Positions 8,875 to 63,659 of a DNA stretch of 64,000 nt are shown here, one piece after another (positions within the stretch are counted from its first letter, which is position 1; the number at the start of each line of letters is the position of its first letter). The stretch spans positions 608,001 through 672,000 of the forward strand of contig CM000434.1 of the NCBI GenBank assembly GCA_000165345.1. Direction: 5' to 3'. A program made the position numbers and the translations under genes. Below the pieces are notes generated by a model. It ran no database searches. It worked only from the letters and a program-made list of their open reading frames with translations, and had not been told where the DNA came from.

Positions 8875-9078
8875 TTTCTTATGGTTTATTTTGATTGACT
8901 TTAAGTCTTAATTTTTCATTTGAATTTTATTAAAGGAAAAACATGTATTTAATAGAGCCCGCCAATAATTTAAGATCCAATAACTTTGTCAAAAATTTCA
9001 AATTTGGAAATAATAATAATTTAACAGAAAGCCAAAACGTGAATTAAGCTTTTTAAATTACACACTGATTTCAATTCC

Positions 9079-10177: not shown

Positions 10178-10341
10178 GATCTAAGGTTTTTAGATACTTA
10201 AGTGTTGTTGATAAATCCAAAAATTCATTAACCTAGAATGATTACTAAAAAATAAGGCGCTAAATTTTTCCCCCTTGCCATACCGGCAATAAAAAAGAAT
10301 AGGAAAAATTTGCCTAAATAAATTTGTGGGAATTAGAAATT

Positions 10342-15523: not shown

Positions 15524-18271
15524 TTAGGAAATTGCAAAAAATAGATCAATAGGCTCGCCCATGTTGGCACAATGTTTGGATAATTCTGTATGATCGCTGA
15601 GTAATTGATCAGAAAATGAGGAAGCAATGTCAGGAAGTTCCACAAAGTCTTGATATTGAGCTGATGTAATAATTGAAAAAACACTAGATGAATCATGCAT
15701 ATTATTTCCAAGTCTAGGGGTTTCTGTTAAGTTTTGTGACTCTATTAGACTCTCTCCATTATCATCTACTAAACCGTCTCTAGAGATATTTGAGTCGTTG
15801 TGACTATCACAGCCATGAATAAGTTTTTCTTCTGAACAGCTTCTAATTCCAGCCTCTCTTGAAATATGTTCTTCATCATCTATTTGCCCCTCTTCCACAA
15901 TTCTTAATGGTGAATTGCAATGGAAAGACATGGATAAATGTTGTAAAGGAGATATCGAATTTAGTACAACATCCAAATTCTTGTGAAAAGGATCCAAATG
16001 ATCAGTATCTCTTTCTGAAATTGTGTTGTTACCTTCAAGAGCCTTAAGTAGAGCTTGTAGTTCGCTTGAATACATTAGAAGATGCTGTTGGATTGCCAAA
16101 TATAAAGCTTTATGGTATAATATTGTCCTTTTAGAATTAATTACTTCTGAAGTTTGTTTTTTGTTTAAAATGTCCGAATTCGTTTCTTTACAGTTATACA
16201 ATCGATCTGAAGACTCCTCTAAACGAGAATTTTCTACATTTTTTTGTATATTCAGATATTCTTGTACTACAGATGATTTGACAATCAGTTTAGTGACTCC
16301 TGGAATATTTCCATCCAACCAGCTTACATATAACCTGTTTAGACTTTCTATAGGAATTGATCTGACTAGATCCCAAATAAAGTTTGAGGAATATCCTTGA
16401 CTTGATGCTTGCTCAAATTCCATACCAAGCTCAAGTTCCAATTCTTCAATCGATTCATCTTGAGATCTTTCGCTGAACTTTTCATTTGTAATTATGGAGC
16501 TGTTATTCTCGCCTTCTTCTGATAAAAACATTCTTTTTCGTGGGAATTCATGCTCCTCCTCCTCAAAGAAGATCTGCTTTGGTTTTGATTTTGGCCTTCC
16601 TCTTCCCCTACTCTTCTTAGTACTTTTACAAAAAATTGAACCTTGATTTAGTGCTTGCATTTCTGCTGCTGAGTCATTGCATTCGCTGGAGCTTGAACTA
16701 CGAACACAATCTACATTATTTATTCCTGAATTATCAATACAACCATCATCTTCGATGAAATCTCGCTTTTGAAGATTCAAATCTTCCAACACTTGATTTG
16801 AGTTTATTTGTAAGTTTTCTTCATTCATATTTCTCTCAGTATTATTTGTAAGCAGTGAAACCTCTGGAACCGGGTTTTTTTTTAAAGCTCTTTCCTCAAA
16901 GCCATGTATTTTTGGAGTTATATATTCAAATTGTCCATTGGACTTTTTCCCTCTATATCTCCACTTTTTAATATGGCTTTCTATATCCAATGTTGATACC
17001 CACAACAAACTCCCTAAAGGATATCCTGCATCCAAGTATTCTTCTGGGCACATCTCCATACACCAAACCTTTAAGAGCCTTTTTATTGATTTTAATTTGT
17101 TCATTGATTTTAGCTGGTAATAAAAGTCCATCAGCCTTTGAGGATTGCTACTTCTTGCTCTTGGATCCAAGTGGTATGGTGGATCTACTACAAACATAAA
17201 TAATAATACCTTCATAAACACGGGGCCCATGATATTCTTTTGTCTGTGGTGATTCAAAACATCAACTTTATGACAACCATTCAGTTGAAGCTTCTTATCA
17301 AAGAAATAGTATTTCCCTCCTCCTCCACTCTTTAATGCTCGTTTTTCAGTACAAAATGCTAAAAACCCAGAATTTTGCTTTGAAACACAATTTACAAAGT
17401 AGTTCTCAAACTCTTCTATATTCTTCTCTTTCCCTAAATCGTCGATACTTTGTACTATTGGAATTGGGCACCTATTTGGAGCATCCCTCACTATTTTGAA
17501 GATCTCTATCACGCTAGGAACAAGCTTTAAGTAACATGTTCGACTTTTTGTAAACTCAAGCATTAGATTTGTCTTTAGAATATCTAGATACTCATTGTCC
17601 ATATATCTAGAGATATCTTTCGGCTCAGATGTTCCCTCTGAACGCATCTCTTTAAAGACAGTATCTGTAACATTGTATATTGAAACAGAAGATGTACTAC
17701 TTGAGTAGTTTGAAATCTGTCTATTCAAATTGATTTTTTCACTTGGAAAATTCGAGCAGCATTGTGTCTGAATGTTTGATATTTCTTGATTCCTTTCGTT
17801 TGCCTTATTTTCACTATCCAATAGAAACTTTGAACTAATTATTTGACCTTGCATTTCTTGACAACCGATCTTTTCTTCACTTTGAAACATATCATCAGCA
17901 TTATTATTATAGAAATTATAGCTAAAGATCCCATTTCTATCATTACTATGCGAAAGATCATCATCATGAATTATATTCTCTGACCATCCTAGCATTCCAA
18001 TACTATTGTTTATCAAGCAAGGAATATTCTCAGAAATTACCTTTTCTTCTTCTGAATTTCCTTCAGTACAAATAAGGTTTCTTCCCTCTTTTACCTTGTT
18101 ATATATAGAATTGGGTATCATCCTCTTATTACTATTTAATAAGGGAGAGCTTACCTCATGTAAAGACGCCGGAGAAAGTGTTGAGGGTGTCATTGGAGCC
18201 TTGTTCTGTCCATCATCATGCCAAAACAAGAATGGTGTTTTTCTAATATATTCTTCACTGTTGTTAATCAT
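15524..18271 (-). CDS. Large nuclear-type protein with an AT-hook (KKSRGRGRPKSKPK) and a divergent MT-A70-like (METTL3/METTL14-family) methyltransferase signature
   Basis: The track start at 18280 is a TTG; the first ATG is the revcomp of cat at 18269-18271 (MINNSEEY...). The AT-hook GRGRP core maps to about 16592-16606. Around 16940-17190 the protein reads FMFVVDPPYHLD...(56 aa)...SLLWVSTLDIESHIKKWRYRG. That resembles MT-A70 motif IV ([DE]PP[WL]) followed by F[LI]WV[TS]...L..WGYR[RE], as seen in METTL3/METTL14. The match is short and the downstream WVKTN motif is not recognisable, hence the modest confidence. Confidence 0.5.
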   Translation of the reverse strand: MINNSEEYIRKTPFLFWHDDGQNKAPMTPSTLSPASLHEVSSPLLNSNKRMIPNSIYNKVKEGRNLICTEGNSEEEKVISENIPCLINNSIGMLGWSENIIHDDDLSHSNDRNGIFSYNFYNNNADDMFQSEEKIGCQEMQGQIISSKFLLDSENKANERNQEISNIQTQCCSNFPSEKINLNRQISNYSSSTSSVSIYNVTDTVFKEMRSEGTSEPKDISRYMDNEYLDILKTNLMLEFTKSRTCYLKLVPSVIEIFKIVRDAPNRCPIPIVQSIDDLGKEKNIEEFENYFVNCVSKQNSGFLAFCTEKRALKSGGGGKYYFFDKKLQLNGCHKVDVLNHHRQKNIMGPVFMKVLLFMFVVDPPYHLDPRARSSNPQRLMDFYYQLKSMNKLKSIKRLLKVWCMEMCPEEYLDAGYPLGSLLWVSTLDIESHIKKWRYRGKKSNGQFEYITPKIHGFEERALKKNPVPEVSLLTNNTERNMNEENLQINSNQVLEDLNLQKRDFIEDDGCIDNSGINNVDCVRSSSSSECNDSAAEMQALNQGSIFCKSTKKSRGRGRPKSKPKQIFFEEEEHEFPRKRMFLSEEGENNSSIITNEKFSERSQDESIEELELELGMEFEQASSQGYSSNFIWDLVRSIPIESLNRLYVSWLDGNIPGVTKLIVKSSVVQEYLNIQKNVENSRLEESSDRLYNCKETNSDILNKKQTSEVINSKRTILYHKALYLAIQQHLLMYSSELQALLKALEGNNTISERDTDHLDPFHKNLDVVLNSISPLQHLSMSFHCNSPLRIVEEGQIDDEEHISREAGIRSCSEEKLIHGCDSHNDSNISRDGLVDDNGESLIESQNLTETPRLGNNMHDSSSVFSIITSAQYQDFVELPDIASSFSDQLLSDHTELSKHCANMGEPIDLFFAIS

Positions 18272-18344
18272 ATCCGGCAATTATTGCTCAATTGCCTATT
18301 TATTGGAAATAAACAAGTACTTGGATGCCTGTGTAATATATAAT

Positions 18345-18390: not shown

Positions 18391-19931
18391 ATCAGCTTTA
18401 ATTAGTCAGCTTTATCACCCTTTAGAGATAACTTCTCATCTAAAGTTATCTAGTTTTATGGTTGATTAGTTTGACCTTTAATTATTAATTCAGCTATATT
18501 GTAGAACGCTCCAATTGATTTCATTCCACACATCAAACTATTACAGCGCTTCAGTAAGGCTCATATGACTGTGTTTAACATAAGTAACGCACTATTTAGT
18601 GCCTAATTACCCCCACAACACGACATAGTTTTATTATTAATGCAAATCAATAGGTAAGCATAGAGAATTCAGATTAGACTTATGTTTACTGTCCAACCAA
18701 TATCCAGAGTTTGCACCAATATTTCCCGGTATATTTTCCAGGTTCAACTATTGGAATATTTTAGAACAGTAGTACTACTATTTAACATTACAATGTTTTG
18801 CTATATATTGGAGGTCTACTAGTTTTTAAACAAAAGTGTTTGCCCCATTTAATTCCACTATATACTCCAAAATACTATTTAGTTTTCTGGAGCTCCATGA
18901 TATTATCGATGAGATAATAAATGGGAGATATATCTGGGAACTGAATAGAATATAATTTATAGTCTAATATTAAAAAATTCCAAATTACACCATTCATTTT
19001 TCCAATTACTCCAGATAAATTCTCCAAAATTATTATTAATGTTCCTAAACACGTCTGAAGTGACATAATTAAAGGTTAAAACGTGCATTCTGGAGTACAG
19101 TGGACACAGACTAGACATATTTTAAGACAAAAATGCATCCCAGCACAAAGCTTGCAATAAGCGCCTGCATTTTAAAGTTCAAGTTTGTTGTAATCCCTCG
19201 AAGAAATAATACTCCAGAACTATAATTTATTGGGAGAATTGCGTTTGCAGTACTTATTCTTACTCTGTATCTTATTACTTTCTTATACAAAGTGTCTCAA
19301 ATTATAGGCCTTAAAATATAAGCGGTCTGAATCTGACACAGAATGAACTGGGTTGCATTTTGAAATAAAAAAAAAATTCTATGATTAAAAAATAGTATAG
19401 TAATTTATGTGTTGTTAGGTAAAATGTTTCTAGTGAGAATTGAATGAATTCACGGAGAAATATGGTATTTTGGGCATTTCGAGAGTTAATCTCCGAGCTC
19501 GTCTTATTGTATGAATAAGGAGAACAAAGGCAATGAGAGAAAGTCAGCATAATGGGAACCTGTCATAGTATTTTTTCTAGAAAACAAGTAAAAATTTGAC
19601 GATATATGGACAAGTTATCGTGAAATTCAAGGTATACCTAACAAAAACAAAAAGTTTAAAGATCTACAAGGTGCAACCACCTTTTTTCACAAAAGAAAAA
19701 CCCTAAAATACGCTTCCTGCGGAACTAATAGTATCTATGTATGTGTGACTAAATTCGCTTTTTTATTATCGTTACTCAAACTCAAATCGTAGAAAGTTCG
19801 GATTTAACATAGGAAATTTGCTACTCTCTTTCTTCTCTTAGAATATGTCTACGTCTCTAGTATTTATCTAGGCTGGCATGGCGGGGTCCCGGGAAATAAA
19901 GATAAATTGTAAATGATAAAAAAAGGAAAAA

Positions 19932-51940: not shown

Positions 51941-52723
51941 CTAATAGAAAACTTGGTCTCTTCCAATTGGTAGTTGGGAGTCGTACTTAACCATCTTGAA
52001 GTTTCTTTCTTCTTCGTTAATTTCTTTTACGAGCTGTCTTTTAAGGATATTTGTTGAGTCAATTGGGATTGACATAGAGTTTTCTTGATTATCCACAAAT
52101 GATTCGCAAATCAAGGGAATGTTGGATCTAAAAGAAATAGGGAATACTTCTTTAAAGTGTTCATTATTTGAAGAGTCATTGAGATGGTTGCGCCCAAATT
52201 TCTCAATAAAACTATTACAATTGCCACCTTTGTGTAAGAGATCATCACTCTTTTCTAAATTAATGCCTGAACTATTCTTGAAACTTCGATCGAGATCACT
52301 CATATCTACCTCAGAGTCAGAAGTTCCATCATCGTCTTCATCTTCAGTTAAAAAGCTTCCTTCACTTGTGGATTCGCAGTCATCATAATAGGTCCAAGAC
52401 GCACCTCCAATAGCTTCATTCTGTGTAGAGACGGGGTTTGGAGAGGTTACAATAATGTAACTAGATGATCTATTATGAATTTGAGATATAGAAAGGTTTT
52501 CTTGGGAATTTTCATAAGGAATTACTAATAGATCTTCGGTTCTAGTTTGTATTGGCGGAAGCTCGTCAACAATTCTAACATCACAAATATCCAGGATTGT
52601 AGAGAGAGATAGATTAGAAAGTGAGGATATATCATACTTTTCCGATCCAAGGGATTCATTAATTAGAATAATTGACTGCTTTATCTCCTCCAATACTTGG
52701 TTGATTACAGGTTCCGATTCCAT
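51941..52723 (-). CDS. Hypothetical acidic protein (260 aa)
   Basis: ATG is the revcomp of cat at 52721-52723. The product is Asp/Glu/Ser-rich with no recognisable domain. Confidence 0.4.
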   Translation of the reverse strand: MESEPVINQVLEEIKQSIILINESLGSEKYDISSLSNLSLSTILDICDVRIVDELPPIQTRTEDLLVIPYENSQENLSISQIHNRSSSYIIVTSPNPVSTQNEAIGGASWTYYDDCESTSEGSFLTEDEDDDGTSDSEVDMSDLDRSFKNSSGINLEKSDDLLHKGGNCNSFIEKFGRNHLNDSSNNEHFKEVFPISFRSNIPLICESFVDNQENSMSIPIDSTNILKRQLVKEINEEERNFKMVKYDSQLPIGRDQVFY

Positions 52724-53432
52724 GATTCTTCCTTAATAAATAAACACGTTTTTCGAACGCATACAATTCAAGTTAGGCCACTGATTGTATATTAATTGTT
52801 ATTTTAGGCTACTTGGTTCAACTTTTATCATACACGTTTGAATAAGTTAGTCTTCTACTCTACATATTAAAATTGGCTACTACTTTGCGTTTGGTAATTT
52901 TATGCCATCTTTCCTGCGGGCCAGAAATTAATAGAAAATACCCTCTAATAACTTTGGCAGTAAAATAACAAAAATTAAACTTTTGCCCCTCCTTGCCGGA
53001 TTATTGGTTAGATTTGTTAATTTATATATTTTTTTTTAATAATTTTTTGATTATTAGTTGTAAAACAGATTTTTTGAAGCAAGGATATTATTACTTTTTG
53101 TTAAGTTTTGATTAGAATAGGCCTTCCATAAAATTGGCTGTAAATAAGGCAGTTGGAAGCTCTAAATAGAAATTTAATTTCCAAGACTATAAGATAATGT
53201 GATTTTGAATGACCTTTCTGAATTTCACGTAATAGATTGCTTTTTTTATTAAAAAAACTTCAACAAATAAATTGAACATTCTCTGCCGCCAAATTCAACC
53301 ATTAATTATTGAAAAATATTCAAATTTGAATAAATCTCATATTTTTGCGATTTTTTGCAAACAAAACCACATAATTTTAACATTCTGCTCTGACCTTCAT
53401 CTTTGTCCACAAATTTTAGCATGTTTTAGTGG

Positions 53433-53518
53433 CATATACCGGTGTTTTGACATTCAGGCGTTTCCCGCCTAAATTCGTATGTAAATTGGCCGCTAGCATG
53501 AAAAAAGCATGTAAAACA
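53433..53518. promoter_or_regulatory. Composite upstream element: CATATACCGGTGTTTT (ACCGGT core) followed by a GCATGTAAA box, 25-110 bp upstream of the coiled-coil gene ATG (53542)
   Basis: catataccggtgtttt at 53433-53448 and gcatgtaaaac at 53508-53518, read directly. The same 15-mer occurs reverse-complemented at 62241-62255. Confidence 0.45.
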
Positions 53519-53541
53519 ATGTGGGTACATGCAAAAAAAAC

Positions 53542-55635
53542 ATGGAAATTAAGAAAATAACACAAATGCAGCAGGATGAGATTTTTCAAGAGAATTTGGA
53601 ACTATTTTTAAGGAACTGTGAGTTGAATAGAGAGGTGGGATGGAGGGAGGTTGAAAACACGGATTTACTAGTCCGTTTGAATGATTATAAAGAGAATCAG
53701 AAGAGTTTGGAGCTTTTTATAAAGAAGCTAAAAGAAGATGAGATTGACTCATGCTTAGGAGAAATTTCGGCAAAAAGTCAGCTTAAAGAGTCTCAGAAGA
53801 TAGTGAGAAGCTTGGAAAAATACAACGAATATTTAAAGGCTATGCTACGTAAGTATATGAATGCTGGTTGCCACATAAATAAAATTTTGAATGGGGAAAA
53901 GATAACTTCGGAAGGATCATTAGAAAATGAATCTGAGGACGAATTCAGAGAGAATTTGAAGAAATGTCTGAACATACTGGAACTGCTTTCGATGGATATT
54001 GAGGAGCAAGTCAAGTATAAGGACAAGTACAAAGCATTGAAGACAGAAAACAAAGATTTAAAAGGTAGAATTGAGAAGTTGACTAGGGTTAAGCCAAGCA
54101 AAAAGGTGAGAATGGAGGTTTCTCTGACAATAATTGAACCATTTGAGTTTGATAAAGAATTAATCAAAGATACCCAAATAGTTGAGGATGTTTTTGAGCA
54201 GATAAAAAACGACCCTGTGGATAAAAGTCTGGAGGAAGAAGATATTGATAACAAAGAAATTGATATTAGTTATGAAGTTGAATGTTTGAATTACCTAATA
54301 AAACAACATAAGAAGGAAAATTTCGAGCTTAAGCAAAAAATTTTCGAGTATGAATTCAAAGATAACAAACTTGACGTGGAAGCACTAATAGAGTCAAAAC
54401 TTATGGATAAGCAAAGGGAACTAGATGAGTTGGAAGAAGAGTACTCAAATTGGGTAATTAGACTTCAGGGAGAGAATTCTGAGCTAAGAAAAGTAATTGA
54501 AATCCAAGAAAAGAAACAATCAGAATTTATTGATAACTTTACCAAAAAAAGCCAAGAGAAAGCAAAAGAAATGCAAAATATGCAGTTAAAGTTGGTAGAG
54601 AATTACGAGGAGAGGCTTAGAGAAAAGAATGAAGAGTTGAGGAAGCTAAGAGGAGAAAATATACAAGGAGAAAAGGATAGTATAGAAATAGAGTCTCTAA
54701 ACAAAATAATTAAGAGTCTCGAGGAAAAATTAGTTTCTATTTCCAGTGAGAGGCATCGTTTATCATTAGAACTTGAAAAAACAGCTAAAGATCTCAAAGA
54801 TACCGATAAGAGACTAGTTTTGAGTGAAGAAGAAATAAAGAAAAGAGAAAAAGAATTTGATTCTCTAAAAGCTGAGCAGGAAAAAATCCTTGAAGAATAT
54901 TACCATGAAAAGAAGTTGCACCAGAAGTTCGAACAAGATGCTCACTCACTAAAAAAGGAGCTCGATAATGTACTCAGTGATATGTACAAGAATCAAAAGA
55001 AAACTAGATCTGGAATTGTTGGCGATTCCATTGATAGCGACAAAATTTCTTCGATTGAAGCTGTTATTAAGCATTGCAAAGAACTTGAAGGTAAAGTTGA
55101 AGAATTAGGTTGCGAATTAGATCAACTTAAAAGTGGGAAATCTGTCACTTATACAAATTCAAGTCATAATAATGCAGAAATTGAAACTCTATTTGATCAG
55201 GTACAAAGCCTCAGGAAAGAACGTGAACAACTTAAAAAAGACATTAGGCAGAGAGATTGGGCCAAAGTCGAAGTTGAAATTCTTCATAAGCGTATTACCG
55301 AGGAAATTGATCAACTCAAGAGGGATAACACTCGACTAATGCTTGAAAATCTCAGATTAAGAGATTCTGGCGGAATCCAGATTTCTCAAAGGCAGAATTT
55401 CTTGAATTCAAACAATGAAAATATTCAAGCCAATAGTACGAGATCATCCATTTCGGGTGACAAGCAGGAATTACTAAATAAAGGCACTGAGACGAACCCT
55501 TCAAATCTTGAAGAAACTAATCATAATAATTCAAACGTTTCTGTTTCTAGAAACAGTATTCAATCTATACTTAATCTAAAGGCTCCTAGAAGGCCTAGTT
55601 TACTAGTTCAACAAAGGAACTACTCCGAAAAATAG
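53542..55635 (+). CDS. Long coiled-coil protein (Glu/Lys-rich, ~700 aa)
   Basis: The track start at 53521 is a GTG; the first ATG is at 53542 (MEIKKITQMQQDE...). The product has extensive heptad-like E/K/L-rich sequence throughout (e.g. LEEEYSNWVIRLQGENSELRKVIEIQEKKQSEF). Confidence 0.55.
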   Translation: MEIKKITQMQQDEIFQENLELFLRNCELNREVGWREVENTDLLVRLNDYKENQKSLELFIKKLKEDEIDSCLGEISAKSQLKESQKIVRSLEKYNEYLKAMLRKYMNAGCHINKILNGEKITSEGSLENESEDEFRENLKKCLNILELLSMDIEEQVKYKDKYKALKTENKDLKGRIEKLTRVKPSKKVRMEVSLTIIEPFEFDKELIKDTQIVEDVFEQIKNDPVDKSLEEEDIDNKEIDISYEVECLNYLIKQHKKENFELKQKIFEYEFKDNKLDVEALIESKLMDKQRELDELEEEYSNWVIRLQGENSELRKVIEIQEKKQSEFIDNFTKKSQEKAKEMQNMQLKLVENYEERLREKNEELRKLRGENIQGEKDSIEIESLNKIIKSLEEKLVSISSERHRLSLELEKTAKDLKDTDKRLVLSEEEIKKREKEFDSLKAEQEKILEEYYHEKKLHQKFEQDAHSLKKELDNVLSDMYKNQKKTRSGIVGDSIDSDKISSIEAVIKHCKELEGKVEELGCELDQLKSGKSVTYTNSSHNNAEIETLFDQVQSLRKEREQLKKDIRQRDWAKVEVEILHKRITEEIDQLKRDNTRLMLENLRLRDSGGIQISQRQNFLNSNNENIQANSTRSSISGDKQELLNKGTETNPSNLEETNHNNSNVSVSRNSIQSILNLKAPRRPSLLVQQRNYSEK

Positions 55636-56060
55636 TCAATAATGTACTGTCAAATATAGTTCATCCTCCAAAAATAAGTAATTTCAGACAAATTATGTTA
55701 AATCCCTAAATCTACATTTATCTAAGAAATATAATTAGTGAATATTAATTTATTAATTTATAATCTTTATGGTTTAGAGAATCTTGCAAATATTTCGCGC
55801 CATTTCCTTTTAATGTTTAAAAAATAAATATTTTGAAATTATTTAACTCAATTGTTCATTAAAAATCAAACTCTTACAAGAATTAAGGTAAGAAGAGCTA
55901 AACAATTATAAATATCTGTTTTAATTACTAGAAACTTTAATTGATATTTGAAAGCTCCATATCCAAAAAAGAAAAGTTGAATGCAAGATCTAAAAAAAAG
56001 CCAAAGCAAGTAAATTAGTGTTATAAACTATTCTAGGTGCTTTCTTAAAGATAGCTCTTA

Positions 56061-56813
56061 ATGGAGATAATCAGAAATATAATTAACATATATCTTAAAA
56101 AGTTCTTGCAGCTTGAGGATCTTAAGTGGGACATCAACCAAGGACTACAAGTTGACCATGTTAGGGCAAACTCACAGAGTATCAATAAACAATTCGAAGA
56201 AAAAGGTATTCCCATTCAAATATATAATGGAACTTTAGATTCAATAAAGATTACTTACTCTCCTACAAACGGAACATTTCAAATACATATAAAAGAAATT
56301 AATGCTCAAATCAAGCCTAGGGTACTTTCTACTGTCGGAAAAAAGATCCAGCAAGGAATTGTTAACATTATTCTGGATGAGGACCCCATTGAATTTATTG
56401 ATTCCTACTCATACATCAGAGATCTACCCATATCATACCTAGAACAAGCAAGTAAAAAATCAGAATCATCTATTGCTGATCCCGACCTTATTCCAGACCC
56501 TCCCAGGTTTCCCACTGCTGCCTTGAAAATCAAACAACATACAGATTACCCGCCCAAATATTACCCGCCACTTCATTTTAGTATTTATAAGCCAAAAGTT
56601 ACAAAGATGCCTGCAACATCAACACCACTCATATTTCAAAATCGTTGCCAGGAGCATCATCTACCATCTAGTCCACTGGTGTATGGGCCAAGGAATCAAA
56701 GTGTTCCTATTTTACAGGATTTCCACAGCCAGTTTCAGCCCAGTTATATAACAAATAATAACTGCGAAAATGGACATGTTAGAGCACTTAGGGAAAGCGG
56801 TTTTTGCATATAG
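56061..56813 (+). CDS. Hypothetical protein (250 aa) with a Pro-rich C-terminal half
   Basis: ATG at 56061. The N-terminal ~90 aa (MEIIRNIINIYLKKFLQLEDLKWDINQGLQVDHVRANSQSINKQFEEKGIPIQIYNGTLDSIKITYSP) show an amphipathic pattern weakly like chorein-N-type N-termini. The C-terminus is Pro/Tyr-rich. Confidence 0.4.
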   Translation: MEIIRNIINIYLKKFLQLEDLKWDINQGLQVDHVRANSQSINKQFEEKGIPIQIYNGTLDSIKITYSPTNGTFQIHIKEINAQIKPRVLSTVGKKIQQGIVNIILDEDPIEFIDSYSYIRDLPISYLEQASKKSESSIADPDLIPDPPRFPTAALKIKQHTDYPPKYYPPLHFSIYKPKVTKMPATSTPLIFQNRCQEHHLPSSPLVYGPRNQSVPILQDFHSQFQPSYITNNNCENGHVRALRESGFCI

Positions 56814-56858
56814 ATTAGAGGAAATAGCTTAGCTATCGTTACTACTATCAATGTCATT

Positions 56859-57881
56859 TTACTTTCTATTGCTTCTCGAATTCCTCAACTTGTTTTTTGA
56901 GGCAGTTCTATTTTTGTTTGCACTAATGAAAGTTTTGTTTAAAAGTGTTGAAAGCTCCTTATCTTGTTGATTTATTTGGTCTATTATAAATCCTGTGTTT
57001 GTAATAACATCTTCAGTATTCTCTGATACATCGTATTCCCCTGAGTAATATTCTTCATCTGACAATGAATCTTCTCCCATGTTTAGAGAGTTATCAACTA
57101 TCCCAATACCAGAGAACGAGTCTAACTCATTCTTGTACATTCTATTACAAAGTTTCGGGTACTCTAAAGGTTTATAAAGTTCCTCAATCTGATTTAACCA
57201 ATCTTTTGCTCTTTCTGATTTTAGATTTAAATCCTTAGAGCTTTCGTTACCTGAAATGGCTTTCCCCAGAGTCCTACCATCACTTGGGATCTTGATCCTC
57301 TCAGCTGTCCTGTTAATACCAAAAAATGAATTCTTTCTTGAAGGTAAGCCTCTATTAAAAGAATGCCTTCCATTTCTTGCATCAAAACTCATGGAAAGCC
57401 TACTTTCTTTCAAGTCAAATTCATTCAAACCTCTCAAATTTAACCTGTTCTTTTTTTCGAATCTACTATTTTCATTATTAAAGTAGCAATCATTCTGAAA
57501 TAATTCGTTTATCTCAATCTCAACCTGTCTTGAAACTGCCAAATCTACTTGTCTACACTTACTTTTTAAACTATCTCCTTTTAACCTGTCAATTTCGCTC
57601 CTCATCAGCTCATTATGTTCTAATGTATTACTGTATAGCTGGTATGTTTCTAGAAGCTTTTTTCTTAAATTATTTACTTCATATCTTAACTGTCTTCTTA
57701 GCTTTAACTCAGTCTTATGTTCTAATTCTACTTGTCTCAATTTTCTCTCGAGGAATCCAACAGTTTGTGCTTCCCTCTCCTTAGTCTCTAAATGTCTCTT
57801 TTCCAAATCATTCAACTTCACCTCTAACCGACTTTTGAGAATAAAGTCCTTCTCATTGATTAGTCCAGAATTATCCTCCAT
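56859..57881 (-). CDS. Hypothetical coiled-coil protein
   Basis: The track start at 57899 is a TTG; the first ATG is the revcomp of cat at 57879-57881 (MEDNSGLINEKD...). The N-terminal 130 aa are coiled coil (LEVKLNDLEKRHLETKEREAQTVGFLERKLRQVELEHKTELKLRRQLRYEVNNLRKKLLE). Confidence 0.45.
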   Translation of the reverse strand: MEDNSGLINEKDFILKSRLEVKLNDLEKRHLETKEREAQTVGFLERKLRQVELEHKTELKLRRQLRYEVNNLRKKLLETYQLYSNTLEHNELMRSEIDRLKGDSLKSKCRQVDLAVSRQVEIEINELFQNDCYFNNENSRFEKKNRLNLRGLNEFDLKESRLSMSFDARNGRHSFNRGLPSRKNSFFGINRTAERIKIPSDGRTLGKAISGNESSKDLNLKSERAKDWLNQIEELYKPLEYPKLCNRMYKNELDSFSGIGIVDNSLNMGEDSLSDEEYYSGEYDVSENTEDVITNTGFIIDQINQQDKELSTLLNKTFISANKNRTASKNKLRNSRSNRK

Positions 57882-58094
57882 TAATAAGCTTTTGATCAAT
57901 TCAAACTACCCTACATTAACTTAAACATTAAGTAATATTAAATACTAAGTTTAAACCCAAATAATTGCTCTCACTTTATTCCTCGATTTGTAAACAATTT
58001 TAAATCTTTTTTTTAAATTTTTTTAATTTTTAATATTTTCTTTTTCCTCAATTAGATTAAATCTTTGTAATATAATAAATATGCTTACTTGCGT

Positions 58095-58105
58095 GGCGCC
58101 AAAAG
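58095..58105. promoter_or_regulatory. E2F-like box TGGCGCCAAAA in a divergent promoter (about 140 bp upstream of the 58244 ATG)
   Basis: gcgtggcgccaaaag at 58091-58105, read directly. Confidence 0.45.
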
Positions 58106-58243
58106 ATTCCCATTTGCATGCTTTTTAAAAAAAGCCCTCAAATATTCAAGAAAAAAGAAAATCTGAAAGATTCGTCTGACACAGATAAATATGTTTTTAA
58201 ATAAAATCTGAAACTTCAGATGGTAATTAAATCTTTTGTTTAA

Positions 58244-59464
58244 ATGAGTCACATTAGGCCAGTAATTAAATTAAAAGGAATAGAACCAATATGGAAGAAT
58301 TCAACAGATATTCTCTCATTTGAAGAAACTTCTATCATACAAAAGTCTCTCAAGCATATGTCTAATGAAATTAAAGAGCTAAAAGAATGTAAACAAAGTT
58401 TATCTTATTTAGAAGTTGTTGATATTTATAAAAGATTTGGTGATCTTATAAACTGTTTTGTTACTCATTTTGACTTTAATAGAGTAAAGATATTTTCTCA
58501 AAGGAGAAGCATTGCAAAGTACTCCTACCATATATTGATATGTATTATCAATATTATTGAAGATAAGTCATTTCAGCTTGATAAAGAAAGTTTAGTAAAA
58601 AGTTGTCAGATATGTTTGAATTATTACTTTCCATCAAAGGCAATCAAACAAATGGAATCCAACTCAAATAAATCAGAATTCGATCTAAATAGCAGTTCTC
58701 AGAGGTTTGATTTAAATAGAAGTCAGGATTTATGTAGTACTCCTCCTAGAAGTTCCGTATCTATGGATATTTCAAACTGTCTTCCCAACCCAAGTCCATT
58801 TAATTTATCTTTAATATCACCAGGATCTTCAAGTATTTCAATTTACCAACAACCTATTACAAGATATAACTCTTCAGAAAATTGTCTCTCTGAATATACA
58901 AATTTACATATCCAACATAATCAAGAAGAACCTTTTAGCTGTGAATCAGAGTTTTTCCCAAATGAATTTCAGTTGCCAATGCCAATTGAGGAAGCAAAAA
59001 GAAGACTCAGAGAAAAGCTATTGAGGAAGGAAATATCTGATATGAAGAAACAAAAAAATAAGGAGCTTGACTACCAATCCGACTATAGCAATTTAAGCTC
59101 TCCTTTAAAAAGTAAATCTCTCTTACATTCTTGGGGAAGCGAGCAAAGCGATAAGTCTGAATTACATATTGAAGATCTTGCTGGTGCATCAAGTGAAAAT
59201 CCATACAAAAGCAATAAAGTTGTCAATATCAAACATAATCTACAAACCCAATCAGACTTTTGGGAATCTACAAAAGTTGCTGCTCAATTAGCTGAAACAT
59301 TACCCGAACCTCACAGGACTCGTAGAATCAGAAAAGAAATCTATCAACAAAGTATAGAAAGATCTGTTGAACTTTTAAAGAGCTTAGGGATTTGTAGGAA
59401 CTTCAGACCATCAGTCCTTACAAAGACGATGATACATACTGTAGAATGTATAATAGATTACTGA
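58244..59464 (+). CDS. Hypothetical protein (406 aa)
   Basis: ATG at 58244. No recognisable domain. The C-terminus is basic (EPHRTRRIRKEIYQQSIERSVELLKSL). Confidence 0.45.
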   Translation: MSHIRPVIKLKGIEPIWKNSTDILSFEETSIIQKSLKHMSNEIKELKECKQSLSYLEVVDIYKRFGDLINCFVTHFDFNRVKIFSQRRSIAKYSYHILICIINIIEDKSFQLDKESLVKSCQICLNYYFPSKAIKQMESNSNKSEFDLNSSSQRFDLNRSQDLCSTPPRSSVSMDISNCLPNPSPFNLSLISPGSSSISIYQQPITRYNSSENCLSEYTNLHIQHNQEEPFSCESEFFPNEFQLPMPIEEAKRRLREKLLRKEISDMKKQKNKELDYQSDYSNLSSPLKSKSLLHSWGSEQSDKSELHIEDLAGASSENPYKSNKVVNIKHNLQTQSDFWESTKVAAQLAETLPEPHRTRRIRKEIYQQSIERSVELLKSLGICRNFRPSVLTKTMIHTVECIIDY

Positions 59465-59511
59465 TATTTAGAATGACGGATTCTATTTTCTATATACTAA
59501 TATCTAAATTC

Positions 59512-60835
59512 TTAATATAATGCTAAATACTTACTTTCTATATTTTGTTTTAAAATAATATCGGGAGGAAGTCTTTTAATTACTTTTAATATATAGTTTG
59601 TGATTCCCAGATAAGTAAACCAATGTTTGAATTTCTTAATCTGTTCAAATTTGAATTTTAATTCATCTTCACTGAGTGAGTTTAAAATATCGAATAAATC
59701 TTCAATCTGAGAGATATGGATAACTATTCCAAGTCTCTCCATTAAATTCCCATATGGAATCCAATTTACATCGTCCCAAATATATATTGGAATAGTTCCT
59801 AATTGAACTGATTCATATAGTCGAAAAGAAGTTCTTCCGAACCCTCTAGGACATAAATGAAAAGTTGAACGTTGAATTACTTGTTTGAACTGATCTCCTT
59901 GATAGTGAATAAATTGGTTTGTTACATTTTCTAAAACCTTAAAGGGGGTAATTTTATCCAACATTTCATCAGTCACATTATAATATGAAAAAGTCTCAAA
60001 TAATTTTTTCCTAACAGGGAAGTGTTTTTTAACAATAGTTGAAGATACCCAAATATCCTTTTTTGCTTTAAGTCCTTCATATTGAAGTTCGCCTTTAATT
60101 AATGGTATAGGAACTTGTTTAAATCCAGTGGTTGCTCCTCCAGCATTGAATACTATTAGATTTGACATGGACATAAATTTCAATTTAGACTTTTTAAATC
60201 CTTCTGCATCCTATATTGAGTTAGAGTTATAAAAATGATTGAATATTTGGAATAATACCAAATATTTTAAAGCTTACCTGTAGTACAGTAAAATACATTG
60301 TTTCATTTTTAAGTGAATTTAATACATCCTGAGCTTCTTTTTTCCATTCTTTCTTTAAATCAAGCTCAACCTTATTTCTATGAATTGAAGTCCAAAATAT
60401 TGGGATGTAAACTGGAGGAATAGGTTCAGATTCATTACATACTTTGATTTGTTTTGTTGAATACTGTGTAATCCAATTGCAAAAGACTCCATCTTCTATC
60501 CATGGTCCCATATATCCTGAATAGTTTGTATTTAGTCTAGGCCTTAAATTTTTGGTTAGGTTGAAAATTCGGATTTGTTCATCACTTAAACATATTTCTG
60601 TGGTATTATCTCTATTTTGTTTTGTTATATTTTGCAAGTTTATTTGATCCAAATTTCCATCAAAATTCAAATTGCAGTCCAAATAGTCAAACTGAGGATA
60701 GTTTTCCAGGAAGAAACTCCTTGGATTATTATTGCTAGGAAATTCTTGGATGTACAGGTAAATTATTATTCCACCGGTAATTATTAGCATGCATGCAAAT
60801 TCTAATAAAATTAGAAAATTGCATGACAATTTCAT
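59512..60835 (-). CDS. Exostosin-like glycosyltransferase (GT47 family, type II membrane topology), two exons: 60278..60835 and 59512..60210, with a 67-bp intron at 60211..60277
   Basis: ATG is the revcomp of cat at 60833-60835. The signal-anchor is MKLSCNFLILLEFACMLIITGGIIIYLYI. The donor is CTACAG|GTAAGC and the acceptor AATATAG|GATGCAGAAGG, in frame (...YFTVLQ|DAEGFKKSKLKFMSMSNLIVFNAGG...). The downstream exon carries the exostosin/GT47 C-terminal signature STFHLCPRGFGRTSFRLYESVQLGTIPIYIWDD. The ORF track splits this gene into two ORFs, the second starting with a TTG. Confidence 0.7.
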
Positions 60836-61350
60836 TTTCTAATATTTTTTGGAAGAAAAAAATGATTTTTTTTTTAAGAAAAAAAAAAATTTAAATCTTT
60901 TTAGGAAAAATAATATCTCTTGCCACTGTCACTTTTATAACCTTTTCAGTATAATTTTATTCCTTTCTGAATCAATATTTAACTCAAACACTCTTTTCTT
61001 GAAGTTTAGAAATATCATCTACACTTTGTTCAATTACTCTTATTTTTCAAAAATATTATTTCTATATTCTAGAAATACTTCCAGTTCAATGCTTTAAAAT
61101 ATTTTGTTTCTTTTGAAATATTTTTTTTTAATTAAATTAATTTTTGTATTACGTGTCATATTATGATACCTTTTAGTAACGCGTACATGTAATCTTTAAA
61201 TATTATTTTTTCGAATTAATGTGGACGCCCCCAATTAATAAGGAAAAAAAAAATAAAATAAAAAAAATTTTAAAAAAATTTTAAATAAATAAAATTTAAT
61301 ATTTTAAAAATTCTACAAATTAATAGTGTTTGTGAAAGAATACTATTGAA

Positions 61351-62110
61351 ATGCAAAGCCAAGAAATGAGACCTTTGGAAACTTCATCAGAAAGATCTGG
61401 CGAGGTTGTGGGTAAGTTAAATTCCGTGCATACGTATGTGGGGTTAAAATAATTTACAAAAATCTCAGAAAATTCAACTAAAGCAATGGAAGTAAAATTA
61501 GAGGAGAACTCTGAGCCAATGACTCCGAACTATGTTGTTTTCTTAAGAGAACTATTTGTGGGAATGATTGGGGTGCATGCACTATATATTTTTGTAAATT
61601 TCATATTCAGGAACTACCCTGGTTCATTATTATCTCTATTACTGTAAGTTTAATAATATTAAGACATTTAATAATAAAATATTTATACTTTTTTTTAGTA
61701 CAATTTCTGCAATTTATACCCATTTTGACAGAAGAGTTGCGACTTATTCATTAAATACAGGTATAGAACTTCTATTGGGAATTACAATAGGATTGTCAGG
61801 TAAGTTATTTGGTTATTTTTAGTTAAAAATAGATTATTTATATTAATTTATCTTAACTTATAGTTTACTCTCCAGTCCAAGGTTTCGAAAAGTATTTTAA
61901 CGATTCAAACTTAAAGGTGAGTTAGGAAAAAGGATTTGAGTTTTTTTTTTAAAGAATTTCTAATTAAACTATTAATTTTAATCTATTTTACAGAGAGTAA
62001 CTCTTCCTCAACTTGTTTATTGTGCTTTATTTGCATTAATTTCCATTATTTTGGCACGTTTTGAGTACAAATTCAACCAGAAGAGAATAATTAATTCAAA
62101 AAGAACATGA
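61351..62110 (+). CDS. Small polytopic membrane protein encoded by a five-exon gene (approximate exons 61351..61411, 61469..61643, 61699..61799, 61864..61916, 61994..62110)
   Basis: Not in the ORF track. The donors are GTAAGT, GTAAGT, GTAAGT and GTGAGT, and the acceptors are poly-T plus AG, all read from the sequence. The spliced frame is continuous: MQSQEMRPLETSSERSGEVVENSTKAMEVKLEENSEPMTPNYVVFLRELFVGMIGVHALYIFVNFIFRNYPGSLLSLLLTISAIYTHFDRRVATYSLNTGIELLLGITIGLSVYSPVQGFEKYFNDSNLKRVTLPQLVYCALFALISIILARFEYKFNQKRIINSKRT*, with about 4 hydrophobic helices. The family is unknown. The start could instead be the ATG in exon 2 (MEVKLEE...). Confidence 0.4.
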
Positions 62111-62220
62111 AATTATTTAAAACATCTTTTTTAATTTGTTTATTTAATTTTAATAAAAAAAATGGAAGAAGTCAATTGAATAAGTATTTAGTACGTGGAA
62201 GCTTGTTTATGTTACATGAC

Positions 62221-62255
62221 TTGCATGTAAAATTGCATGTAAACACCGGTATATG
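62221..62255. promoter_or_regulatory. Composite upstream element: two TGCATGTAAA boxes followed by AAACACCGGTATATG, the reverse complement of the 15-mer at 53433
   Basis: ttgcatgtaaaattgcatgtaaacaccggtatatg at 62221-62255, read directly. It lies about 140 bp upstream of the 62394 ATG and about 110 bp downstream of the small 5-exon gene. Confidence 0.45.
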
Positions 62256-62393
62256 AGTTTATTTACTAAATATTGACTAGTTATTAAGGATGATTAATTA
62301 ATTCTATAATTTCTTGAATAAAACATATATATATAATTTTTTTTTTGGAATAAAATTAGTTATTAGATTAGAATTGAATCTAAGTATTCGAGT

Positions 62394-63659
62394 ATGAACC
62401 TACATAATGATTTAACAAGTGGTAAAGCAGTAAAGTTCCAATTACTTGCCTTTGGATTGTCAATATTAATATTCATGGGAGGAACTTTTTATATGTTAAT
62501 AAATTCAAGCAGAAACCTTGAGAATGGAAAACAGAGAATTTTTCTCGAGTTAGAAGAGAAAGATATAACAAATCAAAAAAGCTTGGACGAATTAGATAAG
62601 CTAAATGACTCGATGCTCAGAATTTCACTTAAGTTGTCAGAAAGCAAAGATATGTTTGATACCATTGGTGCTTCAATTAATAAAATTGCCAAATATGTGG
62701 AAGCAAATGAAAAGAATATGACAGCAAAAGAATTTATTATTAAAGAAGAGTCAAAGAATGGCTTTGTTTTGGATTCAGTGTTGTTTCCATGTAAATATAG
62801 TTTTGATGGCCCGATATATATATTACTTACTACTACCCCAAAAAGAATTGATAACTTGGGTAAGTATTTGGACTTATTACATAAACAGACTTATGGGATT
62901 AAGGAAGTGATTTTATCCATTCCATACATTTTTGAAAGGACAGGAGAAGAGTATCCACCAATTCCAGGTTATTTGCAAGATAAAAATAGATTTCCTTTAC
63001 TGAGAATTTTAAGGGGAAAAGACTACGGTCCAGCAACAAAATTTCTATTACCAATAGAGATTGGGAATATTCCAGAAGATTCAGGACTGGTAATATTGGA
63101 TGATGATACAAGATATTCAAGACATCTAGTTTGCGATTATATTTATATACACGAAAAATTTCCAGAAGCAGCTTTAGGTAGAAGAGGACAGGCTTTTCAC
63201 GATAAATGCGATCCAACATATAGAACAGATAGAACTCACAGAGTAAGTCACGATCAAAAGAGTGCAAATTTTGTTATTAGAAGCGTAGATCTCCTGAGTG
63301 GAGTTGGAACATATTTTATTCAAAAAAAGTTCATTAGTAAGGATATTTTAACTCTAAAGAATAATTGTCCTACAGAAACTATCAATCATATGTTCTTTAC
63401 TGATGATATTTTGATTTCAGGTTATCTTGCATACAAGAACATTTCAAGGATTGCATTTTCAGATGAGCTTTCAATAGAAGATTTGAATCGACCATATTTG
63501 TTAGGATCTGGTCCTGGAGCTCTTTGGGATATTAATAAGGAAACCTTTCATAATGACAATAGTACAGCAGCATTTGGTTTATATTGGGGATGTAGGAACA
63601 AAGATACAATAGTAAGCAAGCATGGAGAGATACTTTGTAGGTGGAGAAACGAAGTTTGA
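62394..63659 (+). CDS. Type II membrane protein with a DDD (DxD-like) motif; putative Golgi/ER glycosyltransferase-like protein
   Basis: ATG at 62394. The N-terminal signal-anchor is VKFQLLAFGLSILIFMGGTFYMLI, followed by a coiled stem. The globular domain includes YILLTTTPKRIDNLGKYLDLL...GLVILDDDTRYSRH (a Rossmann-like beta-strand start plus DDD). The family is not assignable by eye. Confidence 0.45.
   Translation: MNLHNDLTSGKAVKFQLLAFGLSILIFMGGTFYMLINSSRNLENGKQRIFLELEEKDITNQKSLDELDKLNDSMLRISLKLSESKDMFDTIGASINKIAKYVEANEKNMTAKEFIIKEESKNGFVLDSVLFPCKYSFDGPIYILLTTTPKRIDNLGKYLDLLHKQTYGIKEVILSIPYIFERTGEEYPPIPGYLQDKNRFPLLRILRGKDYGPATKFLLPIEIGNIPEDSGLVILDDDTRYSRHLVCDYIYIHEKFPEAALGRRGQAFHDKCDPTYRTDRTHRVSHDQKSANFVIRSVDLLSGVGTYFIQKKFISKDILTLKNNCPTETINHMFFTDDILISGYLAYKNISRIAFSDELSIEDLNRPYLLGSGPGALWDINKETFHNDNSTAAFGLYWGCRNKDTIVSKHGEILCRWRNEV

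Follow-up and report, generated by a model that had tools for sequence, protein, structure and literature searches.

The 64-kb window analyzed here (the whole stretch of DNA under study, from Cryptosporidium parvum chromosome 6) contains an exact 15-mer, CATATACCGGTGTTT, at 53433-53447 on the plus strand and its exact reverse complement, AAACACCGGTATATG, at 62241-62255, and these are its only two matches in the window even with two mismatches allowed. The copies (sites 1 and 2) lie upstream of plus-strand ATGs at 53542 and 62394, the whole 15-mers standing 95-109 bp and 139-153 bp before the respective ATG, and the likeness between the two places ends at the 15-mer, with unrelated flanks beyond it. 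The coordinates, identity and promoter position of this inverted pair were all as originally described. The elements of the two promoters, with the genes that they precede, are the following.

53418-53427, plus strand: GCATG-type box AGCATGTTTT, 9 nt upstream of the site 1 core; moderate identity, 0.73
53433-53447, plus strand: site 1 15-mer CATATACCGGTGTTT; core ATACCGGT at 53436-53443, 99-106 bp 5' of the cgd6_2860 ATG at 53542
53461-53469, plus strand: E2F-like box TTTCCCGCC (reverse complement GGCGGGAAA), matching the published E2F-like motif TTTGGCGGGAAV
53507-53538, plus strand: proximal cluster GCATGTAAAACAATGTGGGTACATGCAAAAAA, with a GCATGTAAA box, a G-box-like ATGTGGG and TACATGCA (TGCATGTA on the minus strand)
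53542-55635, plus strand: cgd6_2860, coiled-coil protein, downstream of site 1
62191-62198, plus strand: GTACGTGG box with an ACGT core, upstream of the site 2 TGCATG boxes; identity 0.975 in 5 species
62222-62231 and 62234-62243, plus strand: two tandem TGCATGTAAA boxes, the second overlapping the 15-mer by 3 bases; species identity 0.90 and 1.00
62241-62255, minus strand: site 2 15-mer (AAACACCGGTATATG on the plus strand); core ACCGGTAT at 62245-62252, 142-149 bp 5' of the cgd6_2920 ATG
62273-62312, plus strand: AT-rich block TTGACTAGTTATTAAGGATGATTAATTAATTCTATAATTT, nearly invariant, downstream of the motif cluster and ahead of the ATG
62394-63659, plus strand: cgd6_2920, glycosyltransferase-like membrane protein, downstream of site 2

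Both downstream genes are on the 'Female specific' list. Expression of cgd6_2860 (ID from a cluster look-up and accession order; log2 about 5.0) falls with differentiation inhibitors and rises with an inducer, and the gene and cgd7_5050, an AP2-F target, fall together in expression cluster 102. The other gene, cgd6_2920 (ID from accession order, EAK89917 to EAK89924; log2 about 4.0), belongs, with its neighbor cgd6_2900, to the spatial-proteome 'oocyst wall' set. Its spacer measures 283 bp, because an annotated spliced gene fills about 61351-62110.

The boxes that accompany the 15-mers are in part familiar. GCATGTAAA occurs four times in the window, always in non-coding DNA (at 564, 53507-53515, 62223-62231 and 62235-62243), and is thus present near both sites as had been claimed, although the copy near site 1 lies one base from the 53508-53516 first given for it. 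TGCATGTA, at 62222-62229 and 62234-62241 on the plus strand and at 53526-53533 on the minus strand, matches TGCATG(T/C)(G/A) exactly, in the promoters of the 'Female specific' genes cgd6_2860 and cgd6_2920. TGCATG(T/C)(G/A) is the macrogamont promoter motif and matches the array motif of the AP2 factors cgd2_3490 and cgd1_3520 (Hasan 2024, PMC11078545); it is also called AP2_1 (TGCATGCA) (Hasan 2024, PMC11078545; Oberstaller 2013/2014). Judged by their sequence, the TGCATGTAAA boxes are this already published motif, and AP2 binding here is putative. At site 1 the E2F-like box is 100% identical throughout the intestinal clade, with CGCC invariant in 7 of 7 species, and AATGTGGGTACATGCAAAAAA within the proximal cluster reaches an identity of 0.905 over all six other species, with the gastric-clade C. 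serpentis among them and C. xiaoi as well (top 0.4% of windows). The AT-rich block at site 2 holds TGATTAATTAATTC, which is 100% identical and in the top 0.3% of windows, and a mini-uORF, ATGATTAATTAA, at 62290-62301; the block may be core promoter or 5' leader.

Recurrence of the 15-mer was originally held to be too unlikely for chance, and this argument fails. Had the word been fixed in advance, 0.03 matches would be expected, but it was picked out post hoc, and 37 canonical 15-mers occur at least twice in the window against 33.3±7.8 in dinucleotide-preserving shuffles. Repeated 15-mers with at least six G/C bases number five words (three events) where 2.07 would be expected, and 82% of shuffles contain one or more. 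Given that the word was chosen after the fact and that repeats are at chance level, the repeat alone is not beyond chance, and the meaning of the 15-mer rests on other tests, not on its recurrence. These figures (37 against 33±8, with GC-containing repeats expected about twice per window) are what speaks for pure coincidence, that is, for unrelated AT-rich promoters sharing a functionless word, as does the conservation of the whole 15-mers, which is unremarkable in that 26-33% of windows are equally good.

What speaks against coincidence is the behavior of the core in an independent set of 64 promoter fragments (22,295 nt, truncated) from 65 co-regulated macrogamont genes (Hasan 2024), in which counts from the transcribed sequences reproduce text-search counts exactly. 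ACCGGT occurs there 11 times against 0.56±0.73 expected, the highest count among 1000 dinucleotide shuffles being 4. The half-site ATACCGG/CCGGTAT is seen 24 times, where such shuffles give 0.41±0.65. Among 8192 7-mers in the 64 fragments ATACCGG ranks second, at 52-fold, with GCATGCA alone above it, and among 8-mers ATACCGGT ranks third, at 118-fold. The full palindrome, ATACCGGTAT, accounts for 5 of 17 independent half-sites, against 5.5% by chance (p=0.0017). Half-sites also cluster with the neighboring boxes: the nearest GCATG is a median of 14.5 nt away, where random positions give 58.5 nt (p=4e-4), and the nearest ATGTGG 26 nt, where they give 72 nt (p=0.002). Enrichment of ACCGGT, part of the check proposed at the outset, is thus strong within this macrogamont set. 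The cgd6_3730 promoter, TGCATGTAAATACCGGTTTATG, is almost identical in arrangement to site 2, and TACGTGT, which bears on the ACGT-core box GTACGTGG of site 2, is enriched in macrogamont promoters (8 against 0.61 expected).

The link to female genes has several strands. ACCGGT is found in 5 of 7 oocyst-wall promoters and in 6 of 56 others (p=0.001), and the AP2-F-dependent genes cgd7_1730, cgd7_300, cgd7_5050 and cgd8_4290 have half-sites as well. The sites of cgd8_1700 and cgd8_1720 have similar flanks and are probably one event. Three of the four half-sites in the window lie upstream of female-specific genes, the third being the following.

18726-18732, plus strand: half-site CCGGTAT (context TTTCCCGGTATATTTTCC), about 450 bp upstream of cgd6_2680, a minus-strand gene at 15524-18280

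This gene, whose ID was assigned by position, is on the 'Female specific' list. Half-site density is 0.76/kb in the female set against 0.09/kb in the non-female non-coding DNA of the window (p=0.006), a control of only 11.3 kb, too small to separate female specificity rigorously from a preference for promoters at large. Further, half-sites are carried by 17 of the 64 truncated fragments, only about one quarter, and the element is therefore not the sole female determinant.

Conservation provides a further line of evidence. The site 2 core, ACCGGTAT, is 100% identical in five other intestinal-clade species (six with C. parvum), an identity of 1.00 that is equaled or exceeded by 5.7% of 8-nt windows, and the bases around it vary (C, A or T before; TATG, GT, TA or TC after), with C. 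felis having the full palindrome ATACCGGTAT. The corresponding identity at site 1 is 0.91 (equaled or exceeded by 16% of 8-nt windows), and here C. ubiquitum and C. canis retain the core, which is changed in C. meleagridis (ATATCGGT) and C. felis (AACGGGTAT). In C. serpentis, CCGGTAT is kept 114 bp upstream of the cgd6_2920 orthologue, though the flanks are no longer alignable; in C. xiaoi, the element is absent from both orthologous promoters. Across four orthologous 21-kb loci, intergenic half-sites occur only at the two orthologous promoters. The core thus appears better conserved in orthologous promoters than the neutral background would predict, albeit not strictly at site 1. Taken with an enrichment of some 20- to 50-fold in an independent female set, a rank of second or third among k-mers and the clustering with AP2 boxes, this makes pure coincidence extremely improbable as an account of the pair, and for the core it is effectively refuted.

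These comparisons also suggest that function resides in a core of 8-10 bp, (T)ATACCGGT(AT), rather than in the 15-mer. The 15-mer flanks drift among species and exact identity is limited to the C. parvum lineage. That identity exceeds the length of the conserved core, and all eight flanking positions would match only about 7 times in 10,000 for two independent instances (a hand estimate from site frequencies), which would favor a dispersed repeat, a mobile-element remnant, or recent copying from one promoter to the other by duplication or gene conversion. Such an origin is nonetheless the least credible of the explanations considered. The element's flanks are unrelated across all 20 sites, about 17 loci besides the window pair among them; the window pair likewise has unlike flanks and, at up to two mismatches, no third copy in the window. 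Sites 1 and 2 share only 11 bases in C. ubiquitum and 9 in C. canis, and drift within the C. parvum lineage therefore produced the 15-mer identity, most simply as a shared core whose AT-rich flanks would have come to coincide by chance. At these sites, accordingly, nothing points to the dispersed repeat that had been named as a way for the module reading to fail.

Where the element lies bears on the level at which it acts. Female Cryptosporidium is documented to store mRNAs and to repress their translation, and the window sites are only 100-150 nt from the ATGs, so that an RNA-level element might be envisaged, one that sits in the 5' leaders of female or maternal transcripts and serves translational repression, storage or stability. 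It is very unlikely. The Hasan 2024 promoter sequences had annotated 5'UTRs trimmed off, and the motif therefore lies upstream of annotated transcript starts in that set, often by 200-450 nt; one site serves the bidirectional promoter cgd8_4290/4300. The motif is moreover palindromic and used in both orientations (plus at site 1, minus at site 2), and the only significant motif reported for a female RNA-binding protein is CAMCAACAR, in coding sequence. Rfam returned no family at gathering score in the window and none at E<=1 in 52600-53560.

In light of these results, the 15-mers are probably, and with good confidence, two instances of a short palindromic promoter element within the macrogamont (female-stage) promoter code. 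The consensus would be T-ATACCGG-T/c-A-T, with ATACCGGTAT as the full form and ATACCGG as the minimal half-site, placed in either orientation 100-450 bp before the coding sequence or the annotated 5'UTR begins. It would usually stand within 10-40 bp of TGCATG(T/C)(G/A) boxes, for which cgd2_3490, AP2-F and similar AP2 factors are the presumed binders, and of CATGTGG(A/G) boxes, which are G-box-like and resemble the motif of cgd8_810. Most likely, a sequence-specific protein recognizes the element on double-stranded DNA, and given the palindromic site and the excess of full palindromes, that protein is probably dimeric. In concert with the female AP2 factors, it may activate part of the female gene set, above all the genes of oocyst-wall, wall-forming-body and crystalloid-body proteins. 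Protein binding, dimer state and activation rather than repression are what we infer here. Enrichment and conservation establish constraint and not the sign of an effect, and a repressor or boundary factor that silences female genes in asexual or male stages could be the binder instead: a male-specific or asexual factor could equally recognize the element, and female fate has been suggested as a default programme, which fits repression elsewhere. Tight clustering with boxes for female-expressed AP2 factors is, however, more typical of a cooperative activator module, and no repressor of such specificity is known, so that a negative role is unlikely. The original proposal of a composite cis-regulatory module that co-regulates a stage-specific gene subset and is read by an ApiAP2 or other stage-specific factor is supported by the female-specific genes, the macrogamont enrichment, the AP2-box clustering and the conservation. 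On sequence grounds this composite female-stage promoter module appears to be real, with one known component and one apparently undescribed.

Cryptosporidium transmission depends wholly on female gametes making the oocyst wall, and reviews from 2025 and 2026 record no known female commitment factor and confine parasite motifs to AP2-type, E2F, G-box, GAGA and CAAT. The published analysis of the 65 genes gave the top motif only and leaves a comparably strong ACCGGT-type word unmentioned. A second strongly enriched and conserved female-promoter word with an oocyst-wall bias is thus a concrete handle on the problem of female commitment, usable as bait for its factor, as a target for reporter mutation, and as a genome-wide predictor of oocyst-wall and wall-forming-body genes.

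The TGCATGTA(AA) boxes of the window match AP2_1 exactly and lie upstream of female-specific genes as published, whereas the core, ATACCGGT(AT), lacks GCATG and is a separate top-ranked word, adjacent to these boxes and not part of them. Comparison with ApiAP2 motifs, also proposed at the outset, therefore succeeds for the TGCATG boxes, which fit the cgd2_3490/cgd1_3520 motif, and not for ACCGGT, which is unlike every listed array motif of C. parvum AP2 proteins (TGCAT, CACACA/GTGTGT, G-box, GCGTGCA, AAAA), and a non-AP2 factor is consequently at least as likely a binder. The AP2 protein encoded at 13669-15141, originally suggested for this role, is cgd6_2670 (AP2-M), which is male-specific with an array motif of only AAAA, and is an unlikely candidate. 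In plants, the AP2/ERF DRE/CRT element, TACCGACAT, is read by an AP2-type domain. The ACCGGT-type word has TACCG in common with it, so that recognition by an ApiAP2 domain is conceivable in principle, although DRE/CRT differs in its 3' half and is non-palindromic.

Relative to the catalogues of C. parvum upstream motifs (25 motifs in Oberstaller 2013; Table 3 of a 2025 review), the element is of the same kind, a short upstream word of co-expressed genes, and further boxes of sites 1 and 2 belong to families in those catalogues (E2F-like TTTGGCGGGAAV, G-box-like DTGTGGGG, and Motif 9, YTTACAT, the reverse complement of ATGTAAR). CCGG is in none of the motifs of those two catalogues, the earlier of which was drawn from whole-culture time courses and predates sorted female transcriptomes. 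The element is unnamed in the searchable literature, motif catalogues and reviews, a scope that leaves aside the single-cell atlas (Walzer 2024, Nature), and is apparently undescribed. The searchable literature likewise yielded no experiment on a protein that binds it or on the effect of its mutation. The closest likeness lies farther afield, among oomycete promoter motifs, which include ATACCGGTAT (Plasmopara halstedii streme-5) and GTACCGGTA (Phytophthora motif-9). The former is the identical 10-nt palindrome, also upstream of hundreds of co-expressed genes and described as a novel inverted repeat without a known binder, and it differs in belonging to stramenopiles rather than alveolates and to effectors and proteases; the main text of the Phytophthora binding-specificity paper contains no CCGGT or ACCGG words. 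The resemblance may be coincidental. A bolder and rather doubtful proposal is that ATACCGGTAT might be the site of a non-AP2 dimeric factor driving the oocyst-wall and wall-forming-body wave in female Cryptosporidium, the missing regulator of the female programme; since the same palindrome is an oomycete promoter motif, factor and motif might then form an ancient pair of stramenopile-alveolate age.

The exact inverted 15-mer of the original prediction is present as described, CATATACCGGTGTTT lying at 53433-53447 (+) and its reverse complement at 62241-62255, with no third copy in the window at up to two mismatches. The argument that a GC-containing 15-mer is too unlikely to recur by chance fails as a post-hoc test: 37 canonical 15-mers are present at least twice in the window, against 33.3±7.8 in dinucleotide-preserving shuffles, and repeats with at least six G/C are expected 2.07 times, one or more arising in 82% of shuffles. 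Given that 15-mer repeats are at chance level, the repeat alone proves nothing and other evidence is needed. Origin from a repeat or mobile element is excluded by the unrelated flanks. Both copies do lie some 100-150 bp 5' of plus-strand ATGs, site 1 upstream of cgd6_2860 and site 2 upstream of cgd6_2920. Gene identities were taken from cluster look-ups and GenBank accession order (EAK89917 to EAK89924), as follows.

13669-15141, minus strand: cgd6_2670, AP2-M
51941-52723, minus strand: cgd6_2850
53542-55635, plus strand: cgd6_2860, coiled-coil protein
56061-56813, plus strand: cgd6_2870
59512-60835, minus strand: cgd6_2900 and cgd6_2910, a single exostosin-like gene divided in the old annotation
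62394-63659, plus strand: cgd6_2920, glycosyltransferase-like

Assignment of the glycosyltransferase-like gene to cgd6_2910 was rejected, accession order making cgd6_2910 the N-terminal exostosin fragment and cgd6_2920 the gene in question; proteins identical to its 421-aa product occur on the Cryptosporidium parvum chromosome 6 records BX526834.1, CP029785.1 and CP141123.1. An annotated spliced gene (167-168 aa) occupies approximately 61351-62110, and the site 2 spacer is therefore 283 bp. Among neighbouring proteins the exostosin GT47 domain is the sole Pfam match at E<=0.01, and cgd6_2920 has none at that threshold; the AP2-M reading frame likewise has no Pfam AP2 match at E<=0.01 and is treated in the literature as an AP2 protein. 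Newer assemblies annotate the two exostosin GT47 halves as one gene of 418 aa, and consequently the 52-nt cgd6_2900 "promoter" of the published 65-gene analysis is intragenic. The true promoter of this gene (60836-61350) contains TACGTGT, TACATGTAA and AATGTGGAC boxes and lacks the CCGG core.

The proposal that the two sites mark a co-regulated gene subset is borne out by expression. Both cgd6_2860 and cgd6_2920, together with cgd6_2900 and cgd6_2910, are classed as "Female specific" (log2 approximately 4-5) in the supplementary table of Hasan et al. 2024 (PMC11078545), in which cgd6_2860 also falls with differentiation inhibitors and rises with an inducer. The spatial-proteome classification used in the AP2-F study places cgd6_2900 and cgd6_2920 in the "oocyst wall" class, and an older time-course clustering puts cgd6_2860 in cluster 102 beside the AP2-F target cgd7_5050, and cgd6_2910 in cluster 103 beside CCp1 and CCP2.

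The TGCATGTAAA boxes near the sites are an already published element. TGCATG(T/C)(G/A) is the most enriched motif in the promoters of 65 co-regulated macrogamont genes and has been equated with the array motif of the AP2 factors cgd2_3490 and cgd1_3520 (Hasan et al. 2024, PMC11078545). Both boxes at 62222-62243 are exact matches to it, and so is TGCATGTA at 53526-53533 (-). The predicted GCATGTAAA element does stand beside both sites, at 53507, 62223 and 62235, although the first had been placed one base off, at 53508; its only other window copy is at 564, and all four are non-coding. Site 1 further carries ATGTGGG, fitting the G-box-like family that is the motif of the female AP2 factor cgd8_810, and TTTCCCGCC, fitting the catalogued E2F-like family. 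The latter, at 53461-53469, is an invariant E2F-like box inside a female-specific promoter, E2F/DP factors having been described as regulators of asexual stages; TTCCCGCC or GGCGCC is also found in several other macrogamont promoters. Just 5' of the cgd6_2860 ATG, conservation of AATGTGGGTACATGCAAAAAA (53518-53538) extends to C. serpentis and C. xiaoi. In macrogamont promoters the related word CATGTGGA(C/T)A ranks third among enriched families (CATGTGGA 17 against 0.23; ATGTGGAC 14 against 0.16), is not reported by Hasan 2024, and, with AATGTGGGTACATGCAAAAAA, may be a site of cgd8_810. At site 2 an ACGT-core box, GTACGTGG (62191-62198), is conserved, and TACGTGT occurs eight times in macrogamont promoters against 0.61 expected, which suggests a bZIP-type input into the same promoters.

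The evidence for the ACCGGT core itself comes from the macrogamont promoters. The S6 file of Hasan et al. limits the promoters of the 65 genes to approximately their first 390 nt; 64 sequences were transcribed (22,295 nt, 24.6% G+C), and the text-search counts (ACCGGT 11, ATACCGGT 9, ACCGGTAT 7, CCGGTAT 12, ATACCGG 12) were reproduced exactly. In 1000 dinucleotide shuffles ACCGGT reached 0.56±0.73, with a maximum of 4, against the 11 observed, and the half-site (ATACCGG or CCGGTAT), observed 24 times in 17 of the 64 fragments, reached 0.41±0.65. When all words are ranked without preselection against a first-order Markov expectation, the half-site comes second among 7-mers (52-fold), after GCATGCA alone, and ATACCGGT takes third place among 8-mers (118-fold). 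The consensus of 20 aligned sites is tttT-a-T-ATACCGG-t-A-T, the base 3' of ATACCGG being T in 11 and C in six. The full palindrome ATACCGGTAT accounts for five of 17 independent half-sites, where 5.5% would be expected by chance (p=0.0017). The ACCGGT core is thus a strongly enriched motif, distinct from the GCATG boxes.

The predicted composite module is likewise supported. The median distance from half-site to nearest GCATG is 14.5 nt, compared with 58.5 nt when positions are drawn at random from the same promoters (p=4e-4); for the nearest ATGTGG it is 26 nt, compared with 72 nt (p=0.002). Individual promoters show similar layouts: cgd6_3730 has TGCATGTAAATACCGGTTTATG, nearly the same arrangement as site 2; cgd7_5130 has GCATGTGGACACCGGTATATAG, with 12 contiguous bases in common with the 15-mer; and the bidirectional cgd8_4290/4300 promoter has TATACCGGTATTACATACATGCA. 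ACCGGT is present in five of seven oocyst-wall-class promoters (cgd3_1540, cgd5_3073, COWP8 (cgd6_200), cgd6_3730 and cgd6_4440) and in six of 56 others (Fisher p=0.001), and half-sites also accompany the AP2-F-dependent genes cgd7_1730, cgd7_300, cgd7_5050 and cgd8_4290. Half-site density is 0.76/kb in the female set against 0.09/kb in a small control, 11.3 kb of non-coding, non-female DNA from the window (p=0.006). All four half-sites of the window are non-coding, and three of them precede female-specific genes (cgd6_2680, cgd6_2860, cgd6_2920); the remaining one is in the divergent cgd6_2650/cgd6_2660 promoter, cgd6_2650 being asexual-specific. The two outside the 15-mer copies, CCCGGTATAT at 18726-18732 upstream of cgd6_2680 and CATACCGGC at 10280-10286 in the divergent promoter, were considered as extended relatives of the 15-mer and rejected, having no extended similarity.

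Conservation was assessed at the syntenic loci of C. meleagridis, C. ubiquitum, C. canis, C. felis, C. xiaoi, C. serpentis and one more species. At site 2, each of the five other intestinal-clade sequences carries an identical ACCGGTAT, a level that only 5.7% of 8-nt windows match; the preceding base is C, A or T, the following bases drift, and the C. felis copy is the full palindrome. At site 1, C. ubiquitum and C. canis retain ATACCGGT, C. meleagridis has ATATCGGT instead, and the C. felis sequence has diverged; mean core identity is 0.91, a value at least matched by 16% of windows. The whole 15-mer, at an identity of approximately 0.82, is not unusual (26-33% of windows are as good), and the bases common to the two sites number 15 in C. 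parvum only, 11 in C. ubiquitum and nine in C. canis. Consequently the functional unit is the core, and identity beyond it is a lineage-specific coincidence. Across four intestinal-clade 21-kb loci, intergenic half-sites occur solely at the two orthologous promoters. In C. serpentis, CCGGTAT lies 114 bp 5' of the cgd6_2920 orthologue, within flanks that are no longer alignable; CTATACCGGCATAG, at 8990-8996 of the same locus (L011), stands 155 bp 5' of the exostosin orthologue, at a position where C. parvum lacks the CCGG core, which suggests motif turnover among neighbouring female-specific promoters.

Two further blocks are conserved. Between the site 2 motif cluster and the cgd6_2920 ATG, a near-invariant AT-rich block (62273-62312) includes TGATTAATTAATTC, 100% identical in six species and in the top 0.3% of windows, and a three-codon uORF, ATGATTAATTAA (62290-62301); it may be core promoter, part of the 5' leader or the site of another factor. 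Directly 5' of cgd6_2850 (minus-strand ATG at 52723), a block of approximately 285 bp (52724-53010) is about 90% identical among four species of the intestinal clade, and its alignment with C. felis is good too. The block holds no ORF of at least 50 aa, its consensus RNA fold lacks covariation support, and Rfam gave no match in the whole window or in 52600-53560; GCCCCTCCTTGCCGG within it resembles TTCCCCCTTGCCATACCGGC at 10264-10285.

As to mechanism, we favour a reading drawn from sequence in which the element would be recognised on double-stranded DNA by a dimeric protein, which would act together with female AP2 factors, activation and repression being both compatible. This is preferred to action of the element at the RNA level because the element is palindromic, occurs in both orientations, lies in promoter sequence from which Hasan et al. 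trimmed the annotated 5'UTRs, and includes one bidirectional-promoter site. Among ApiAP2 array motifs, one matches the TGCATG boxes; CCGG occurs in no C. parvum AP2 motif that is listed. AP2-M (13669-15141), proposed as a binder, is a poor candidate, being male-specific with an array motif of only AAAA, and no female-specific DNA-binding Myb is catalogued. Candidate binders are the early-female zinc-finger protein cgd4_1360, the bZIP cgd6_740 (expression cluster 102), or an unrecognised specificity of a female AP2 factor.

The ACCGGT element is best read as a stage-specific promoter motif, and its bearing on how the female and oocyst-wall programme is controlled gives it real interest for the field. 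Of the module's two halves, the GCATG boxes have been described before. ACCGGT does not figure in the 25-motif catalogue, the ApiAP2 study, the reviews of gene regulation (2025) and of female biology (2026), Tandel 2019 or the main text of Hasan 2024. Nor do CCGG-type words occur in Oberstaller 2013/2014, Campbell 2010, the polycistron/ATAC and F-RBP preprints or the Toxoplasma sexual atlas; a full-text search for the motif words with Cryptosporidium, its coverage excluding Walzer 2024, returned no parasite paper. ATACCGGTAT is identical to a promoter motif of the oomycete Plasmopara halstedii, and a Phytophthora motif, GTACCGGTA, has also been reported, both described without a binding factor; neither the Phytophthora binding-specificity study nor Seidl 2012 names a binder for the oomycete motif. 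The likeness may be coincidence, or it may reflect an old factor-motif pair.
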